Source: an uncultured virus (IMG/VR IMGVR_UViG_3300044617_002354)
Lineage: Duplodnaviria; Heunggongvirae; Uroviricota; Caudoviricetes
Length of the DNA: 20,000 nucleotides
IMG/VR virus record: IMGVR_UViG_3300044617_002354
Direction: 5' to 3' (one strand)
Shown: positions 340 to 11,318 of the stretch, one piece after another
Position numbering within the stretch: position 1 is the first letter of the stretch
How the letters are laid out: the number at the start of each line of letters is the position of its first letter
Position numbers and translations under genes: made by a program
The notes under the pieces: generated by a model
Told to the model about the DNA's origin: nothing
Databases searched by the model: none
What the model saw: only the letters and a program-made list of their open reading frames with translations

Positions 340-2892
340 ATGTATCGAAATTGTTATTATAATAGCTACACAAGTAGTGTATTTCTTCGTACCTGGTCTG
401 AAGAAGGTGTGCGAATTGATACAGAGATGCCATTTTCACCATATCTTTACGTAGAGGACGAAAAAGGTAATTGCGCAACATCTATATTTAAGACACCACT
501 TAAAAGAAAAAACTTTCAGAATAGCTTTGAAAGAAACAAGTTTGTAAAAGAATCAGGTAAAAAACGCTTTTTTGGTAACCTGCCTCCAGAGCAACAATTT
601 CTTATTGATATGTATCATGAGAGTGTTCATGATAAAGATTTTAGTAAATTTCCTTTAAAAGTATATTATTTTGATATTGAAACATACTCACCAGATAGCT
701 TTCCTTTACCTAAGGAAGCAAAGGACCCTGTTATTTTAATTACAGTATACAATTCACTCAACGGTCAAATAGATACATGGGGTGTAGAGAAAGAATACAC
801 TCCAAAACAAAAAAACGTAAAATATCATTGCTGTGATTCTGAAGTTGAGCTGTTTGATAGGTTTATGAAGTTCTGGAAAGCTGACCCACCAGATTTATGG
901 GTCGGATGGAACAGTGAACAGTTCGATATACCGTATATTATTAACAGAGGTCGAAAGCTACTTAATGATGATTTTATCAATCAGCTTTCTCCGTTAAAAA
1001 GCTTAAGGTATAGAGAGTTTCGTAATGACTTTGGTCAAGAGACAGGTAAATGGATTATAAACGGTATAAGCTGTATTGATTATATGGACTTATATAAGAA
1101 GTTTTCAAAAGGAGATAGAGAGTCTTATTCTTTGAACTATATAGCTGAGTATGAATTAGAGGAAGGAAAGCTCGCTATTAATGCAACTAATCTTTCAAGC
1201 CTCGCTGAAACTAATTGGGAGAATTTTGTTGATTATAATATACAGGATGTTAACCTGCTAATTAAGCTTGATAAGAAACTAAATTTTTTGAATATTGTGA
1301 GGCTTTTAGCTTATAAAGGTTGTACAAATTTCGAAGCAGCTTTAGGTAAAATTGCAATTGTTACTGGCGCTATGTCACTACAAGCTCGAGAGCAAGGCTA
1401 TGTTATACCTACATTTGTAAATGATGAGATACGAGATTCGCTTGCAGGAGGGTTTGTAAAAGACCCAGTACGAGGGTTACACGATGGTATAGTTAGTTTT
1501 GACGTAAACTCTCTATACCCAAACACAATCATTACGTTAAATATATCTTCAGAAACAAAGCTTGGTAAAATTATTACAGGAGACATTGAGAAAGATCCGC
1601 GTATACAAATAAAACTTGTTAATGGTGCAGTTTCTTCAATAGAAACGGAAAAATTTAAAAAATTTATAAAAGATGAAAAAGTAGCAGTGTCAAAGGCTGG
1701 GGTGTTATACTCTCAGAAATTTAAAGGGGTTTGCCCTAATTTAATCAATAAGATCTACACAGAAAGAGTTGAAGCAAAAAAGAAAATGAAAGAACTTCAA
1801 CTTAGTAAAAAGCACGATAAAAGCACAAAAGACTCTATTGTATATTATGATACATTACAGTATACGTTAAAAATCTTACTTAATAGTATATATGGAGTTT
1901 TCGCAAATAAACACTCTCCATTTATGGATATTGATAATGCTTCATCAATTACGCTTACAGGTCAGGCTGTTGCTAAAGCAGGTTCAGATATCATAAGAAA
2001 TTTTGTAACTCAGAAGTACGGCATCACAGATGATGTGGTTATTTATAATGACACTGATTCTTGTTATATTACGATAAAACCAATTTTGCAAAAATATAAC
2101 ATACGTTTAGTTGATGATTCGAACCATATAACGCAAGAAGCGCATGTCGTTGTTAACGAGATAGATAAAATTGTAAACACGGAAATTCTTGCTTGGGCGA
2201 GAACTGAACTCAATTCCATGGACCCGCGTTACGAGTTTAAGAGAGAAGCTATTGCAGATGTTGGTACGTTTTTACAAAAAAAGAGATATATTATTAGAGT
2301 TTTAGACGATGAAGGTATACCAACAAATAAGTTTAAATATGTCGGGGTTGAAATTGCAAGATCAACGACCCCTAAAAAAGTAAAAGATCTTATTAAAAAG
2401 ACAGTAGAAACAGCATTTTTAACAAAGGATGTTAAAAAGACAAATGATACGTTTAGAGAAGTTTATGAAGAGTTTAAAAAACTCGATGAACAAGAAGCTT
2501 CTTTTAGAAAAGCTGTAAAGGATTACGAAAAATATAGTAAGACTACAGATTTAAGCAAGTTTGAAAAAGGTACACCGTGTCATGTTAAAGCGGCTATTGC
2601 ATATAATTTATTACTTAAAGCTTTTAAAATTGAAAACAAATACGAAAAAATAAACTCTGGTCAAAAAATAAAATATTTCTATGCAGCAAAAAACCGTTAC
2701 AATCTCGATGCGGTTGCATTTGTGGCAAAGTTTCCAGATGAATTTAAAGAATATATAAAAATTGACTACAATAAAATGTTTGATAAAATAGTCGCAGCAC
2801 CAATTGAAAGCGTGTATGAGGCTATTAATTGGAGAGTACCAAATTTTTCTAAAGAAATACAAACAGATTTATTTGATTTATTGGATGAATAA
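340..2892 (+). CDS. gp43: Family B DNA polymerase, T4 gp43-like, with 3'-5' exonuclease
   Basis: ExoI YFDIET, ExoII WNSEQFDIPY, ExoIII YNIQDV; motif A SFDVNSLYP, motif B KILLNSIYG, motif C YNDTDS, then KKRY and GVEIARSTTP. 850 aa with no obvious intein. Confidence 0.97.
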   Translation: MYRNCYYNSYTSSVFLRTWSEEGVRIDTEMPFSPYLYVEDEKGNCATSIFKTPLKRKNFQNSFERNKFVKESGKKRFFGNLPPEQQFLIDMYHESVHDKDFSKFPLKVYYFDIETYSPDSFPLPKEAKDPVILITVYNSLNGQIDTWGVEKEYTPKQKNVKYHCCDSEVELFDRFMKFWKADPPDLWVGWNSEQFDIPYIINRGRKLLNDDFINQLSPLKSLRYREFRNDFGQETGKWIINGISCIDYMDLYKKFSKGDRESYSLNYIAEYELEEGKLAINATNLSSLAETNWENFVDYNIQDVNLLIKLDKKLNFLNIVRLLAYKGCTNFEAALGKIAIVTGAMSLQAREQGYVIPTFVNDEIRDSLAGGFVKDPVRGLHDGIVSFDVNSLYPNTIITLNISSETKLGKIITGDIEKDPRIQIKLVNGAVSSIETEKFKKFIKDEKVAVSKAGVLYSQKFKGVCPNLINKIYTERVEAKKKMKELQLSKKHDKSTKDSIVYYDTLQYTLKILLNSIYGVFANKHSPFMDIDNASSITLTGQAVAKAGSDIIRNFVTQKYGITDDVVIYNDTDSCYITIKPILQKYNIRLVDDSNHITQEAHVVVNEIDKIVNTEILAWARTELNSMDPRYEFKREAIADVGTFLQKKRYIIRVLDDEGIPTNKFKYVGVEIARSTTPKKVKDLIKKTVETAFLTKDVKKTNDTFREVYEEFKKLDEQEASFRKAVKDYEKYSKTTDLSKFEKGTPCHVKAAIAYNLLLKAFKIENKYEKINSGQKIKYFYAAKNRYNLDAVAFVAKFPDEFKEYIKIDYNKMFDKIVAAPIESVYEAINWRVPNFSKEIQTDLFDLLDE

Positions 2893-2909: not shown

Positions 2910-3740
2910 GTGAAAATATCTCATGAAGTACCTATTGACTTGTTAGATGTCTCTCATTCTTTTAATGATTACTGTTATTGTTTAGTACATTTACTTCCAC
3001 AGTTCTCTAAATACAGAGAACACTACTTTAATAGCGTTAAAGTGGGTAGGCATGTATTACTCGATAATAGTATTTTTGAGTTAGGAGAAGCTTATGACTC
3101 AGCTGAATTTGCAAAATGGGTTAAAGACTTATCTCCTACAGAATATATTGTGCCGGATGTTTTAGAGAATTCAGCGCTCACAAAACAAAAGTATTTAGAG
3201 TTTTTTGATACGTACCCTAACCTACCCGGTAAAGTTATTACAGTTGTTCAGGGACAGACATATGAGGAAATAAAAGAGCTATATTTGTTTTTCTTAAATG
3301 AAGAAAGAGTGAATAAAATAGCTATATCTTTTGATTATAGCTATTACTTGTCAGAGGAGTGTAAACAGTATGCTGCACGTCTTAATTTTAATGCAAAGAA
3401 CGGTAAATGGTGGGAATACACACTAGGCAGAGCTGCAACACTTTTTAGGTTAAAAGAAGAAAATATACTATCAAGTAAAAAGAAGCTACATTTACTTGGA
3501 TGCTCATTACCTATTGAATTTAGTTTTTATAAATATCTTGACCTCGATTCGTATATTGATACTATTGATACATCAAACCCTGTCGTGGCTGGTATGTTAG
3601 GTAAAAGATATTCTACAGAGGGACTGGATGAAAAATGGTCATATAAGTTAGTTGATTTTATAGAAGCAAAACTCACCACCAAGCAGGTAAAAGATGCATG
3701 GTATAATGTTAATAAATTTAAAAGGTTTTTACATAAGTGA
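2910..3740 (+). CDS. dpdA: TGT-fold 7-deazaguanine transglycosylase, DpdA-like (probably DpdA3-type)
   Basis: Motifs fall in TGT order: LLDNS (cf. DSGG catalytic Asp), IVPDV (substrate Asp), VVQGQ (cf. IVQGG), LHLLG (cf. YLMG), IDTIDTS (cf. DMFDC nucleophile Asp). No C-terminal CxCxxC zinc site. Same operon as QueF. Confidence 0.8.
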   Translation: MKISHEVPIDLLDVSHSFNDYCYCLVHLLPQFSKYREHYFNSVKVGRHVLLDNSIFELGEAYDSAEFAKWVKDLSPTEYIVPDVLENSALTKQKYLEFFDTYPNLPGKVITVVQGQTYEEIKELYLFFLNEERVNKIAISFDYSYYLSEECKQYAARLNFNAKNGKWWEYTLGRAATLFRLKEENILSSKKKLHLLGCSLPIEFSFYKYLDLDSYIDTIDTSNPVVAGMLGKRYSTEGLDEKWSYKLVDFIEAKLTTKQVKDAWYNVNKFKRFLHK

Positions 3741-4270
3741 AAAAGTGGGTAGCATTGTTTTCTCAAACAGGTAGTGAAATCTATAATCTTTCAAAAGATT
3801 TAAAAAGATCTCCAGATGTTATTGTTACAAATAAATCGTTTCAAGACATAGAATTGATTAATTTTAATCTCGTTAACACGCACTGGTCTAAATTTCTTTG
3901 GTTACCAAAGAAACCCACGGTGGATGAATACATCCTAGCTTTAGAAGGAGCAGATATAGTCACCTTACATGGTTATTTACGTATAATACCTAAAGAAGTG
4001 TGTGATATGTTTAATATATACAATCTTCATCCAGCACCTTTAACGAGATACCCGTTTTTAAAAGGTAAAGATCCGCAAAAAAAGATTTTTGAGCAAAAAT
4101 TAGATTATGGCGGGAACACTATACATAAGTGTACCGCTGAATTAGATAGCGGGGAAATTATTTTAGAAGAAGATTTTTTTATAAAAGACTATAGACTCGA
4201 TATAATTATCGGTTTGACGCATAAAAGAGCATCAGCTTTATGGTATAAATTTTTAAAAAATAATTTATGA
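3737..4270 (+). CDS. dpdN: PurN-like (GAR transformylase family) formyltransferase; probable preQ1 formyltransferase (DpdN-like)
   Basis: ALFSQTGSE (cf. VLISGNGSN), DIVTLHGYLRII (cf. VLAGFMRIL), YNLHPAPL (NxHP catalytic Asn/His), TIHKCTAELDSGEII (catalytic Asp). GTGA overlap with the upstream gene. The dpdN name rests on context. Confidence 0.8.
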   Translation: MKKWVALFSQTGSEIYNLSKDLKRSPDVIVTNKSFQDIELINFNLVNTHWSKFLWLPKKPTVDEYILALEGADIVTLHGYLRIIPKEVCDMFNIYNLHPAPLTRYPFLKGKDPQKKIFEQKLDYGGNTIHKCTAELDSGEIILEEDFFIKDYRLDIIIGLTHKRASALWYKFLKNNL

Positions 4271-4785
4271 AAATAGCAATATCTGGTGGAGCAAGTCAAG
4301 GAAAAAGTACTATAGTTAATATGCTTAAAGAAGATAGCATGTTTCAAGAGTATAATTTTTGCACTAACTTAACAAGAAATTTATCTCAGCAAGGTATACC
4401 AATTAATGAAGGAGGTACCGCGATAACACAACTTCACGTTATGCTCAAACATTTCGAGAGACTATATATGTATGAGAATGCTGTATTAGATCGTTGTGCA
4501 CTAGATGGGTTAGCATACAGCATGTATTTTTTTGACAAAATTGAAAAACCTGTACGAGAAGCAATTATAAAGCTTTTTGAAGCTATGATTGTAAAGTATG
4601 ATAAAATTTTTTATATACCACCTGAGTTACCACTAATAGAAGACGGTGAGCGTTCAGTGGATAGAAATTTTTTTAACGGAGTAAACAAGAATTTTGAAGC
4701 AGTAATTAGGGATTATAGTGTAGATGTTATTCGTATTAGCGGCACAGTTACTGAGAGAATAAAGCAGATTAAATCAAATTTATGA
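4267..4785 (+). CDS. P-loop nucleotide/nucleoside kinase (AAA_28/NadR-like, dNMP-kinase fold)
   Basis: N-terminal Walker A IAISGGASQGKST, kinase motif VLDRCALD, and YDKIFYIPPELPLIEDGERS. ATGA overlaps with both neighbours. Confidence 0.8.
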   Translation: MKIAISGGASQGKSTIVNMLKEDSMFQEYNFCTNLTRNLSQQGIPINEGGTAITQLHVMLKHFERLYMYENAVLDRCALDGLAYSMYFFDKIEKPVREAIIKLFEAMIVKYDKIFYIPPELPLIEDGERSVDRNFFNGVNKNFEAVIRDYSVDVIRISGTVTERIKQIKSNL

Positions 4786-5690
4786 ATACAAAATTAGATA
4801 ATACAGAAATAAGTAAAGTTTTAGGGCAAAGAGTTGATGCCCCGAAACAGTACAGTAAGGATATCTTGGTTCGAGAGAAAAGATCTAATAATCGAGAATA
4901 TCTAAATATTAAAGAAGAAGAGCTACCGTTTTTCGGTGTCGATATTTGGAATAACTGGGAAATAAGCGCCCTTACCGAGGGTGGGTTACCGGTTACAGGT
5001 GTAGCAAAAATTACATACCCGTGTAATAGCCCGTATATTGTTGAGTCAAAATCGGCAAAACTTTATTTTAACTCATTCAATATGACAAAATTTGGAAAAA
5101 CACCAGAAGAAGTAATTAGCAATATCGAGAGAGTAGCAAGTTTGGATTTATCCGAATTCTTAGAGACAAAAGTAGAAGTACATATTTTTTCTTCTGCAAA
5201 TAATCCATACACTTCAGATGCGGAAGGCTATTTTAATACATTTAAACTTATAGATAGAGTTAACCCGCACCTTGTTACAGATGTATATAGTGAGAGTAAA
5301 GAGTTATTAAGTTGGGAAGCCGGTGACACTCTTGCACCGATACCACAGCGATTTTCGAGCACTCTGTTAAGATCTAATTGCCGTGTAACCAATCAACCAG
5401 ATGCGGGAGATGTTTTTATAAGTATAACGTCATCTAAAATAATTGATCAAGAGAGTTTATTAAAATATATTATAAGTTTTAGAAATGAATGTCATTTTCA
5501 CGAAGAAGTTTGTGAGTGTATATACACGAGACTTAATGAGGTGTACGCTCCCACTGAACTTCTCGTTATGTGTTTTTACGTAAGACGAGGTAGTTTAGAT
5601 ATTAACCCAATACGGGCAAGTAAAATGGAAGTAATACCTGGTTTTTTATTAGAACCTAAAGCCCCGTACGCAAAATTTCGCAGACAGTGA
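4782..5690 (+). CDS. queF: NADPH-dependent 7-cyano-7-deazaguanine (preQ0) reductase QueF, bimodular E. coli/YqcD type
   Basis: LPFFGVDIWNNWEIS, QueF motif ESKSAKLYFNSFN, catalytic Cys/Asp in LLRSNCRVTNQPDAG, FHEE, and YVRRGSLDINPIR. Confidence 0.95.
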   Translation: MNTKLDNTEISKVLGQRVDAPKQYSKDILVREKRSNNREYLNIKEEELPFFGVDIWNNWEISALTEGGLPVTGVAKITYPCNSPYIVESKSAKLYFNSFNMTKFGKTPEEVISNIERVASLDLSEFLETKVEVHIFSSANNPYTSDAEGYFNTFKLIDRVNPHLVTDVYSESKELLSWEAGDTLAPIPQRFSSTLLRSNCRVTNQPDAGDVFISITSSKIIDQESLLKYIISFRNECHFHEEVCECIYTRLNEVYAPTELLVMCFYVRRGSLDINPIRASKMEVIPGFLLEPKAPYAKFRRQ

Positions 5691-5691
5691 G

Positions 5692-5719
5692 TTGATTTTT
5701 AAAACCATAATATTAAAAT
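5692..5719 (+). promoter_or_regulatory. sigma70-like promoter
   Basis: TTGATT (5692-5697), 16-nt spacer, TAAAAT (5714-5719); ATG at 5729. Confidence 0.6.
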
Positions 5720-5728
5720 ATATTCGAT

Positions 5729-6091
5729 ATGAAACAAGAAAATACGTTAATTACATTTTTAGACTCAGTCGGTAGAACTGTACTGGGTGAAAAAGTTGAA
5801 GAAAAAACTACAGACAAAATTTTAGCGGTTAAAAACCCTGCAGTTGTCGCTATCTCCCCTCAACCACAGGGTGGTTTGCAACTTCAAATTCTTCCTTTAT
5901 TTTTTAAAGAGTTTTTAGCAGATAAAAATGAGTCTACAGTTTGGTTGTATCAAAAGAACACTCTTACAATGTGTGAACAAATTCTTTTTGATTTTAAGCT
6001 TAACGCTCAATATCAACAGCTATTTGCACCGATACCTGTCCAGCCTCAAGGACAATCTCCCGAAGTCGTTAAACTTTTTGACGACGAATAA
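5729..6091 (+). CDS. Small phage protein, possibly Sm-like beta-barrel
   Basis: 120 aa with its own promoter and terminator. The beta-rich pattern (TVLGE...LAVKNPAVV...QLQILP) resembles small Sm-like proteins of T4-like phages; the fold call is tentative. Confidence 0.55.
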   Translation: MKQENTLITFLDSVGRTVLGEKVEEKTTDKILAVKNPAVVAISPQPQGGLQLQILPLFFKEFLADKNESTVWLYQKNTLTMCEQILFDFKLNAQYQQLFAPIPVQPQGQSPEVVKLFDDE

Positions 6092-10670: not shown

Positions 10671-11318
10671 ATGAAAAAATTACGTTACGCAAATCACAAT
10701 CACCCTCATACTCAAGAGGAGATAAATGATTTAATCGAGAAAGGTGCAAAAGCATATGAGACATATCTCGACGCTCTTGGTTTTGATTGGAGAAATGATC
10801 CTAATAGTGCAGATACCCCCCATCGAGTAGCAAAAGCGTTTGTTACAGATTTAGCAATGGGTTGTTACGCTCCGCCACCTAAGGTGACCGCTTTTGATAA
10901 TGTTGATAAGTACGACGGTATGGTGTGTCAGAACAATATTAAAGTTGTCTCTATGTGCTCACATCATCACGCTCCGTTCATGGGGTATGCCCATGTTGCG
11001 TATTTGCCTTCAAAAGACGGCAAGGTAATTGGATTAAGCAAACTTAATCGTATAGTAGATTGGTTTGCAAGAAGACCTCAAGTGCAAGAAAATTTAACAA
11101 TGCAGATTCATAATTACATTGATCAAATTTGCGAAAAAAATAAAGGTGTTGCGGTTATGATTGAAGCGAATCATACATGCTGTTCAAATAGAGGCATTAA
11201 GCATGATTCTACAATGAGGACCGCACGCATGTCAGGTGCTTTCTTAGATGAAGATGATAATTCTCGTAGCGAGTTTTATAAATTTGTTGAGTTTGCAAAA
11301 CACGGTATTACAGTTTAG
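10671..11318 (+). CDS. folE: GTP cyclohydrolase I
   Basis: DTPHRVAK, SMCSHH, GYAHVAYLP, IGLSKLNRIV, RRPQVQENLT, GVAVMIEANHTCCSNRG. Confidence 0.96.
   Translation: MKKLRYANHNHPHTQEEINDLIEKGAKAYETYLDALGFDWRNDPNSADTPHRVAKAFVTDLAMGCYAPPPKVTAFDNVDKYDGMVCQNNIKVVSMCSHHHAPFMGYAHVAYLPSKDGKVIGLSKLNRIVDWFARRPQVQENLTMQIHNYIDQICEKNKGVAVMIEANHTCCSNRGIKHDSTMRTARMSGAFLDEDDNSRSEFYKFVEFAKHGITV

Follow-up and report, generated by a model that had tools for sequence, protein, structure and literature searches.

A small P-loop kinase as the near-obligate genomic partner of the DpdA3 transglycosylase in phage 7-deazaguanine cassettes

We analysed a 20,000-nucleotide (nt) stretch of DNA from an uncultured virus (IMG/VR record IMGVR_UViG_3300044617_002354), hereafter the window, and within it a small kinase gene that lies among genes for 7-deazaguanine modification of DNA. 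The window is phage DNA of about 33% GC, with genes for a T4-type terminase, sheath, tail tube and baseplate downstream of the cassette. Four genes stand head-to-tail directly 3' of the gene for a family B DNA polymerase (PolB), giving the run PolB, DpdA3, DpdN, kinase and QueF. The features are listed below by position (aa, amino acids; ORF, open reading frame; TGT, tRNA-guanine transglycosylase).

340 to 2892, plus strand: family B DNA polymerase (PF00136, E 1.9e-28; PF03104, E 1.7e-24), ending 17 nt 5' of DpdA3.
2910 to 3740, plus strand: DpdA3-type TGT-fold transglycosylase, 276 aa (phrog_19058, E 2e-47).
3737 to 4270, plus strand: PurN-like formyltransferase, homologue of DpdN, 177 aa (PF00551, E 2.4e-12).
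4267 to 4785, plus strand: P-loop kinase of a DpdA3-linked AAA_28 subfamily, 172 aa, ATG start (AAA_28, phrog_2107, structural model and linkage).
4782 to 5690, plus strand: bimodular QueF, the preQ0 to preQ1 reductase, 302 aa (PF14819, E 3.1e-32; PF14489, E 5.7e-19; TIGR03138, E 1.4e-70).
5729 to 6091, plus strand: conserved ORF of 120 aa (tblastn matches at the same place in related loci).
10671 to 11318, plus strand: GTP cyclohydrolase I (FolE), the first step of 7-deazaguanine synthesis (PF01227, E 2.3e-49).

The kinase ATG (4267-4269) overlaps the formyltransferase TGA (4268-4270) and the kinase TGA (4783-4785) overlaps the queF ATG (4782-4784), a gene overlap of 4 nt on either side. These codon coordinates agree with the first-pass annotation of this DNA, which had the kinase gene overlapping both neighbours. 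DpdA3 and the formyltransferase overlap likewise, through GTGA at 3737-3740. The formyltransferase is 44% identical to the gene in the same position in Flavobacterium phage immuto, and its match to the PurN model TIGR00639 (E 2.5e-9) lies below the cut-off of that model. The PolB-DpdA3 order recurs in related viral-contig loci, and the cassette had no match at the DNA level among 50,697 phage records.

The kinase ORF is genuine. At E <= 0.001 a word-indexed search returned 197 relatives and an exhaustive search 1220, the best at 99% identity, and in a family alignment of 149 sequences the 6 invariant and the 12 near-invariant positions are all conserved in the window protein, far above chance for an ORF in 33% GC DNA. 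The invariant positions are G12, K13, R37, R76, D80 and R129 (window numbering). Outside the P-loop, R37, Q55, D75, R76, D80, Y84 and R129 are invariant or nearly so, and these presumably line the acceptor site, as in related kinases. The protein matches AAA_28 (PF13521) with 53.6 bits against a cut-off of 27 (E 4.1e-14), residues 2-164 covering positions 1-164 of the 164 in the profile, and it also matches phrog_2107, labelled 'thymidylate kinase' (E 9.9e-24).

The kinase was modelled with AlphaFold2 from the 149-sequence alignment, giving a mean predicted local distance difference test score (pLDDT) of 93. In an exhaustive structural comparison the nearest fold was the NadR kinase domain 8x7f (Z 17.4, root-mean-square deviation 2.5 Å, 163 residues aligned), with a second NadR kinase domain, 6gye, at Z 16.2, Drosophila deoxynucleoside kinase (dNK, 1ot3) at Z 15.4, human deoxyguanosine kinase (2ocp) at Z 15.2 and vaccinia thymidylate kinase (TMPK, 2v54) at Z 14.8. 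The top ranks in Foldseek were Mycoplasma deoxyadenosine kinase, deoxycytidine kinase, Aquifex TMPK and NadR. Searched against solved structures, the single sequence found nothing significant and the family profile was needed for matches, which were to NadR (E 9.3e-7), Aquifex TMPK (E 2.9e-6) and Giardia dNK (E 4.5e-6). The kinase has the lid motif DDGxRS in common with NadR and the DR motif in common with TMPK and dNK, and its Q55 aligns with a Gln of dNK that we take to have a base-binding role. The fold together with the six invariant residues makes the protein look like an active small-molecule kinase.

An ordinary thymidylate kinase or a NadR-type enzyme had been named in the first-pass annotation as outcomes that would undo its reading, and the protein is neither. 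It has no match at E <= 0.01 to the Pfam thymidylate-kinase model PF02223, with AAA_28 the sole listed match, and none at the same threshold to the Pfam dNK model PF01712, whose cut-off of 27 bits is passed by one relative, P0152 (31.8 bits). The NadR model TIGR01526 is not passed, at 17.3 bits against a cut-off of 341.15, and no gene of NAD metabolism lies nearby.

Two scans of viral contigs defined the neighbourhood of the family. The kinase alignment found 589 relatives, of which the best 80 (34-52% identity) were inspected, and the DpdA3 alignment found 551, the best 80 of which added 74 new loci. DpdA3 lies just upstream in 75 of the 80 best kinase loci, and the remaining 5 end 62-341 nt before DpdN. 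Conversely, the kinase is present in 68 of the 74 new DpdA3 loci; 5 others end at most 562 nt 3' of DpdA3 and one, L119, is without a kinase. Pooling and removal of duplicates reduced the 154 loci to 121 groups: DpdA3 and the kinase are adjacent in 111, a contig end truncates 9, and 1 (L119) has DpdA3 but no kinase. The pairing is thus found in 111 of the 112 evaluable groups, which bears out the linkage to deazaguanine genes and co-occurrence with DpdA3 across phages that the first-pass annotation had put forward for checking. Phage backbones that are unrelated to one another share it, among them T4-like and other phages and carriers of PolB, PolA or Pol III. Around L119:5334-7727, a CxxCxxCC-domain protein is encoded directly 5' and genes for QueE, QueD, FolE, QueC and the Pol III alpha subunit are found in the surroundings.

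The composition of the cassette varies among the 111 linked groups. The full order DpdA3-DpdN-kinase-QueF occurs in 83 and DpdA3-DpdN-kinase, cut downstream, in 5, while 16 groups have DpdA3-kinase-QueF and 7 have DpdA3-kinase alone. Since 16 groups are without DpdN and 7 without both DpdN and QueF, the kinase tracks DpdA3 and not the tailoring enzymes. These cassettes bear on whether the protein could be a NadR-type nicotinamide riboside kinase that feeds NAD(P)H to QueF. NadR kinase domains are its best structural matches, the JGI label 'nicotinamide riboside kinase' stands on many relatives and one cellular relative adjoins a nicotinamide phosphoribosyltransferase gene. However, the kinase is kept without QueF in the 7 groups and in Campylobacter phage CP220, the aligned NadR sequence is without the DR motif and the window has no NAD gene, which, with the failed NadR model, makes this role hardly credible.

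Among the 50,697 phage records, 107 contain kinase matches: 86 from Streptomyces phages, 17 from Campylobacter phages and 4 from Flavobacterium phages. DpdA3 is present in 14 Campylobacter records, each of which has a kinase gene beginning 84-102 nt beyond it, and Campylobacter phage CC_R7 has a divergent DpdA3-kinase pair. In Streptomyces phages the homologues (22-27% identity) belong to a replication module that has no DpdA. The 9g-type DpdA occurs in 233 phage records, and the genera with kinase hits are not among the ten genera listed, of 39, for these records. Contigs of prokaryote genomes gave 19 kinase relatives: DpdA3 adjoins all 4 at 31-41% identity and is found within 5 kb of none of the 15 at 23-30%, whose neighbours are mixed and include, in one case, the nicotinamide phosphoribosyltransferase gene. 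Below about 30% identity, in cellular genomes and Streptomyces phages, relatives thus have no DpdA3 linkage. In a quick maximum-likelihood tree of 86 rows, de-duplicated from 171 and for which the tool warns of long branches, all DpdA3-linked rows, the window included, fall into one 73-row set with a Shimodaira-Hasegawa-like approximate likelihood ratio test (SH-aLRT) value of 86, under the 95 mark, and 13 unlinked rows stand outside. We assign the kinase, a small P-loop phosphotransferase of nucleoside/nucleotide-kinase fold, to a distinct AAA_28 subfamily that is a near-obligate genomic partner of DpdA3. A second kinase paralog was seen in Campylobacter group II phages, next to a dUTPase gene in the replication module (L200:4992-5995 in CC_R7; 5407-5937 in the CP220 record).

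Fused forms of the kinase were read by Pfam on representatives of the exhaustive search. Formyltransferase (DpdN)-kinase fusions are P0170 and P0238, and fusions of the kinase to a GNAT acetyltransferase are P0153, P0162 and P0169. P0191 (329 aa), whose cluster has 2 members on contigs of 52 and 72 kb, joins the kinase to a trimeric dUTPase-family domain (PF00692, E 3.2e-16). P0152 (451 aa, 5 cluster members) carries about 280 additional residues with an HRH motif; this part is near Amidohydro_2 in a language-model protein atlas (score 0.92) and, strictly as a lead, could represent an alternative carboxy-deazaguanine decarboxylase. In the tree, each of the nine fused forms belongs to the DpdA3-linked set, and P0191 pairs with a DpdA3-linked row (SH-aLRT 91). 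A further kinase-GNAT fusion, P0267, was located in 9 marine metagenome loci; it lies 3' of DpdA3 in 8, the ninth being cut inside the fusion gene, and QueF follows it in all 6 loci with enough room. On these contigs (L171-L179, for example L173:4194-7356) the order is DpdA3, kinase-GNAT, an ORF of 114-121 aa and QueF, with no DpdN. The product of this cassette may be N-acetyl-preQ1, a base absent from the list of derivatives in the accessible part of PMC10516641, and the GNAT and formyltransferase fusions together suggest undescribed acyl variants of preQ1 in DNA. No relatives of P0191, P0169 or P0267 were found in viral contigs, nor of P0191 in metagenome contigs. Word-indexed searches aimed at longer fusions each yielded a single protein, P0284 and P0285, and no DpdA3-kinase fusion was seen in the analysis; P0285 is a protein of 404 aa with a NADAR domain (PF08719) and AAA_28.

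These distributions speak to a plainer explanation, namely that the protein is a general phage dNMP, dTMP or deoxynucleoside kinase which boosts the supply of deoxynucleoside triphosphates (dNTPs) and owes its place in the cassette solely to the clustering of replication and nucleotide genes. PHROG and GenBank annotators label the family 'thymidylate kinase', the DR motif is common to TMPK, and the distant Streptomyces phage relatives do lie in replication modules without DpdA. Such clustering fits poorly with adjacency to DpdA3 on unrelated backbones, with fusions to DpdN or GNAT, with the lack of a Pfam thymidylate-kinase match, with the separate paralog that Campylobacter phages keep beside dUTPase in the replication module, and with kinase-hit genera that differ from those listed for 9g-type DpdA. 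We regard a general role as improbable.

DpdA3 was defined by Cui et al. in 2023, who reported complete replacement in phages CP220, phiST and immuto, at most 30% replacement by other DpdA types, and no activity of DpdA3 when it was tried in E. coli (PMC10516641, accessible part). The window protein (2910-3740) is about 40% identical to immuto DpdA and to CP220 gp056 over 94-99% of its length (E 1e-50 and 3e-42, respectively). Its model (pLDDT 95.4) is a TGT-family TIM barrel with two catalytic aspartates, D52 and D220, which are invariant in 55 sequences. The nearest folds are archaeosine TGT (ArcTGT, 1iq8; Z 17.7) and the DNA enzyme DpdA (7ui4; Z 17.1), and further matches are bacterial TGT (Z 15.3), QTRT2 (Z 15.0) and Cap10, which places deazaguanine onto protein (Z 13.8). 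A weak local alignment (E 1.5) places D220 opposite the SID aspartate of DpdA. In the available sections of PMC10164549, Asp256 is the proposed nucleophile of DpdA, to which we matched the chain numbering by our own count, and a structural Zn site, CXCX2CX22H, is stated to be conserved across the DpdA family. The window DpdA3 is without this site, because no cysteine follows D220 and the protein ends 56 residues later. DpdA3 is thus a stripped-down barrel whose fold does not reveal its ligand. Isoelectric point and net charge were tried as signs of DNA binding and discarded, as they do not discriminate (median isoelectric point of DpdA3 homologues 5.26; the DNA-acting 9g DpdA, 5.64). A complex prediction for DpdA3 and the kinase scored 0.00, which bears neither way.

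A pathway that works on a free deoxynucleoside or deoxynucleotide is the most economical account of a kinase that always adjoins DpdA3, irrespective of the base finally made, and in some lineages occurs fused with a tailoring enzyme or a dUTPase-family domain; in our judgement this account could as readily prove right as wrong. DpdA3 would take a free guanine deoxynucleotide or deoxynucleoside and replace its guanine by a 7-deazaguanine base. In the window the base would be preQ1, made via FolE and QueF, and DpdN would formylate its aminomethyl group. Phosphorylation of the modified deoxynucleoside or dNMP, possibly not a substrate of host guanylate kinase, would then fall to the kinase, and the product would be carried to the triphosphate and built into DNA by the phage PolB. 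A route of this kind would account for the 100% replacement reported for DpdA3 phages. The first-pass annotation had likewise proposed a pre-replicative route, and in its favour are a kinase that is neither ordinary Tmk nor NadR and a near-absolute linkage to DpdA3; what we infer beyond this is the kinase substrate, the order of exchange, formylation and phosphorylation, and the action of DpdA3 on free nucleotides. A modified dGTP was proposed earlier for Campylobacter phages, as cited by Hutinet et al. in 2019 (PMC6884629, accessible part).

Signs of dGTP removal were also sought. A model of the dCTP-deaminase/dUTPase family matches in 4 of five related records, 2 of them above its cut-off. 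In the complete 163-kb record G003 the genes run FolE, an ORF of no assigned function, DpdA3, DpdN, kinase, QueF, QueC, another such ORF and a dCTP-deaminase/dUTPase-family gene, and in G005 a gene of this family lies about 3 kb from the kinase. Both are near-complete 163-kb T4-like records, and the gene is on the same strand a few genes 3' of the kinase (L166:4026-4520 in G003; G005:132256-132642). The phiST cluster has the order MazG, DpdL, a P-loop 'ATPase' gp041 (= CGPG_00066) and DpdA3; other deazaguanine phages are stated to be without homologues of CGPG_00066 (PMC10516641, accessible part). Immuto has a PRA-PH/MazG-type gene two genes 5' of DpdA3. Such nucleotide-gene neighbours in relatives are a suggestive, not a conclusive, sign of dGTP removal. 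The wider proposal combines base exchange by DpdA3 on a free guanine deoxynucleotide, the kinase and, in many phages, a dGTP pyrophosphatase into a pre-replicative pathway to a 7-deaza-dGTP analogue, comparable to the Z-genome route, with the polymerase writing a genome without G; we put it forward tentatively, as having a little less than an even chance. In CP220, gp055 (L002:4050-5081), an HD domain fused to an AAA_33 kinase domain, is encoded just 5' of DpdA3. It was considered as a dGTPase and set aside, as its architecture resembles that of HD-Pnk end-healing enzymes.

Several observations weigh against the free-nucleotide account. In the window, Pfam and PHROGs find no MazG, HD or dUTPase-type gene, and hence no dGTP-clearing enzyme. 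The first-pass annotation had advised a search of the rest of the genome for a dGTPase; carried out on the five related records, it found HD in none and MazG in one. That annotation had also called the kinase NMP-kinase-like. The P-loop kinase fold stands, but nucleoside kinases are no more distant from the model than NMP kinases and the fold does not separate the two, so the step would be either nucleoside to dNMP or dNMP to dNDP. The enzymes nearest to DpdA3 in fold all have macromolecular substrates: tRNA, DNA or, in the case of Cap10, protein. The linkage counts rest on the most similar 80 loci per scan, of 589 for the kinase and 551 for DpdA3, and L119 has DpdA3 and QueF with 6 kb on either side and no kinase. 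In phiST, gp041 aligns with the kinase in the P-loop region alone (hhalign probability 1.5%), as does the ORF upstream of DpdA3 in Chryseobacterium phage MA9V-3 (8.6%), and neither was retained as a homologue, homology not being demonstrable. The published view is that 7-deazaguanine modification is post-replicative, and a paper of December 2025 still cites it as a nucleic-acid-level example (PMC12783734, accessible part). Finally, an ATP-using partner need not by itself imply a nucleotide pathway, because bacterial DpdA requires the ATPase DpdB for exchange at the DNA level.

This last point leads to the main rival, in which the kinase is not a small-molecule kinase but an ATP-hydrolysing helper of DpdA3, analogous to DpdB, for exchange in finished DNA. 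Bacterial DpdA inserts preQ0 into DNA only when DpdB, described as ParB-like, hydrolyses ATP (PMC10164549, accessible part), and DpdA3 alone was inactive in E. coli (PMC10516641, likewise). A strict two-gene DpdA3-kinase module is how an obligate enzyme and its helper would be expected to look, and the macromolecular substrates of the nearest DpdA3 folds agree with it. The kinase, however, has the fold of nucleoside and nucleotide kinases, whereas DpdB is ParB-like; its conserved residues extend beyond the P-loop to the presumed acceptor site; and one lineage fuses it to a dUTPase-family domain, while a paralog stands beside dUTPase. We consider a helper of this kind unlikely, if a serious contender.

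Some P-loop kinases, such as the 5-hydroxymethyl-dU DNA kinases of thymidine-hypermodifying phages, phosphorylate bases within DNA. By analogy the kinase could act on another target of the pathway, either a group on a modified base already in DNA or a polynucleotide 5' end, and the fusions of tailoring enzymes to the kinase could be read in this way. The kinase is nevertheless kept in cassettes whose predicted products differ chemically (7-amido-7-deazaguanine, ADG, in CP220; preQ1; formyl-preQ1) and its role should therefore be common to all of them, while preQ1 and formyl-preQ1 would appear to offer no obvious group in need of phosphorylation. This possibility is very improbable, and phosphorylation of a free deoxynucleoside or dNMP remains our preferred account.

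DpdA3 phages replace every G, against the ceiling of 30% for other DpdA types (PMC10516641, accessible part). The conserved kinase partner, so far unmentioned, is a concrete candidate for the component missing from DpdA3 reconstitution: the word 'kinase' has 0 occurrences in the accessible text and supplement of the paper that defined DpdA3 (PMC10516641), and full-text literature searches, with most subscription journals outside their scope, returned no paper describing a DpdA3-linked kinase. The pair also allows a clean choice between two models, synthesis of a modified dNTP or editing of finished DNA with the help of ATP. Should the nucleotide route prove true, it would be a new enzymatic way to non-canonical dNTPs, and the DpdA3-kinase pair would serve as a sequence marker that predicts fully substituted genomes.

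Some further observations concern the remainder of the window and more distant loci. The ORF at 5729-6091 has no Pfam or PHROG match and is kept at the same place 3' of QueF in all PolB-type relatives. At positions 3-290 lies the C-terminal end of a glycosyltransferase-like gene (phrog_7162, E 3.5e-6), clipped by the window edge. Bacillus phage BSTP12 has a DpdA3-like gene (L168:3336-4684; hhalign probability 98.8%) that is labelled NadR; in sister phages the label is polynucleotide kinase or integrase. Overlapping the start of that gene is gp039, a P-loop gene of 187 aa with a weak full-length match to the kinase profile (probability 71%, E 3.8e-5), which we note as a lead only.

Compared with characterised enzymes, the kinase resembles the NadR kinase domains (8x7f, 6gye, 1lw7) in best fold match, lid motif and AAA_28 membership, and differs in standing alone without a nicotinamide mononucleotide (NMN) adenylyltransferase domain, in having the DR motif and in having no NAD context. 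It shares with TMPK the fold (2v54, Z 14.8) and the DR motif but not the PF02223 match. T4 gp1 is a phage dNMP kinase for hydroxymethyl-dCMP. The likeness to T4 gp1 and to the Z-genome pathway (PurZ and host kinases) lies in the proposed logic, the modified dNMP coming first and phosphorylation after; the difference is that the base here would be installed by TGT-fold exchange. To our knowledge, TGT-fold exchange at the nucleotide level has no precedent. In Z-genome phages the PurZ route leads from dGMP to dZTP (PMC12783734, accessible part).

DpdB is alike in being an ATP-using protein genetically coupled to a DpdA-family transglycosylase (PMC10164549, accessible part), and unlike in being ParB-like where the window protein has a kinase fold. 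DpdA proper (bacterial DpdA, DpdA1 and DpdA2) is stated to have the Zn site that the window DpdA3 lacks. In the CP220 group, whose genomes contain 2'-deoxy-7-amido-7-deazaguanosine (dADG), the DpdA3 gp056 is paired with gp057, a kinase that begins 84 nt after it and is 34% identical to the window kinase; that locus is without DpdN and QueF, and at a different site the genome has another kinase paralog, next to dUTPase. A close parallel is immuto, which has the same order of DpdA3, formyltransferase (DpdN), 'thymidylate kinase' and QueF, with identities to the window of 40%, 44%, 33% and 44%, respectively. Its cluster differs in including a MazG/PRA-PH-type pyrophosphohydrolase and a phosphoribosyltransferase, neither of which was found in the window, and its polymerase is PolA, whereas that of the window is PolB. 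The shared gene order and homologues point to the same predicted product in both phages, formyl-preQ1 in DNA.

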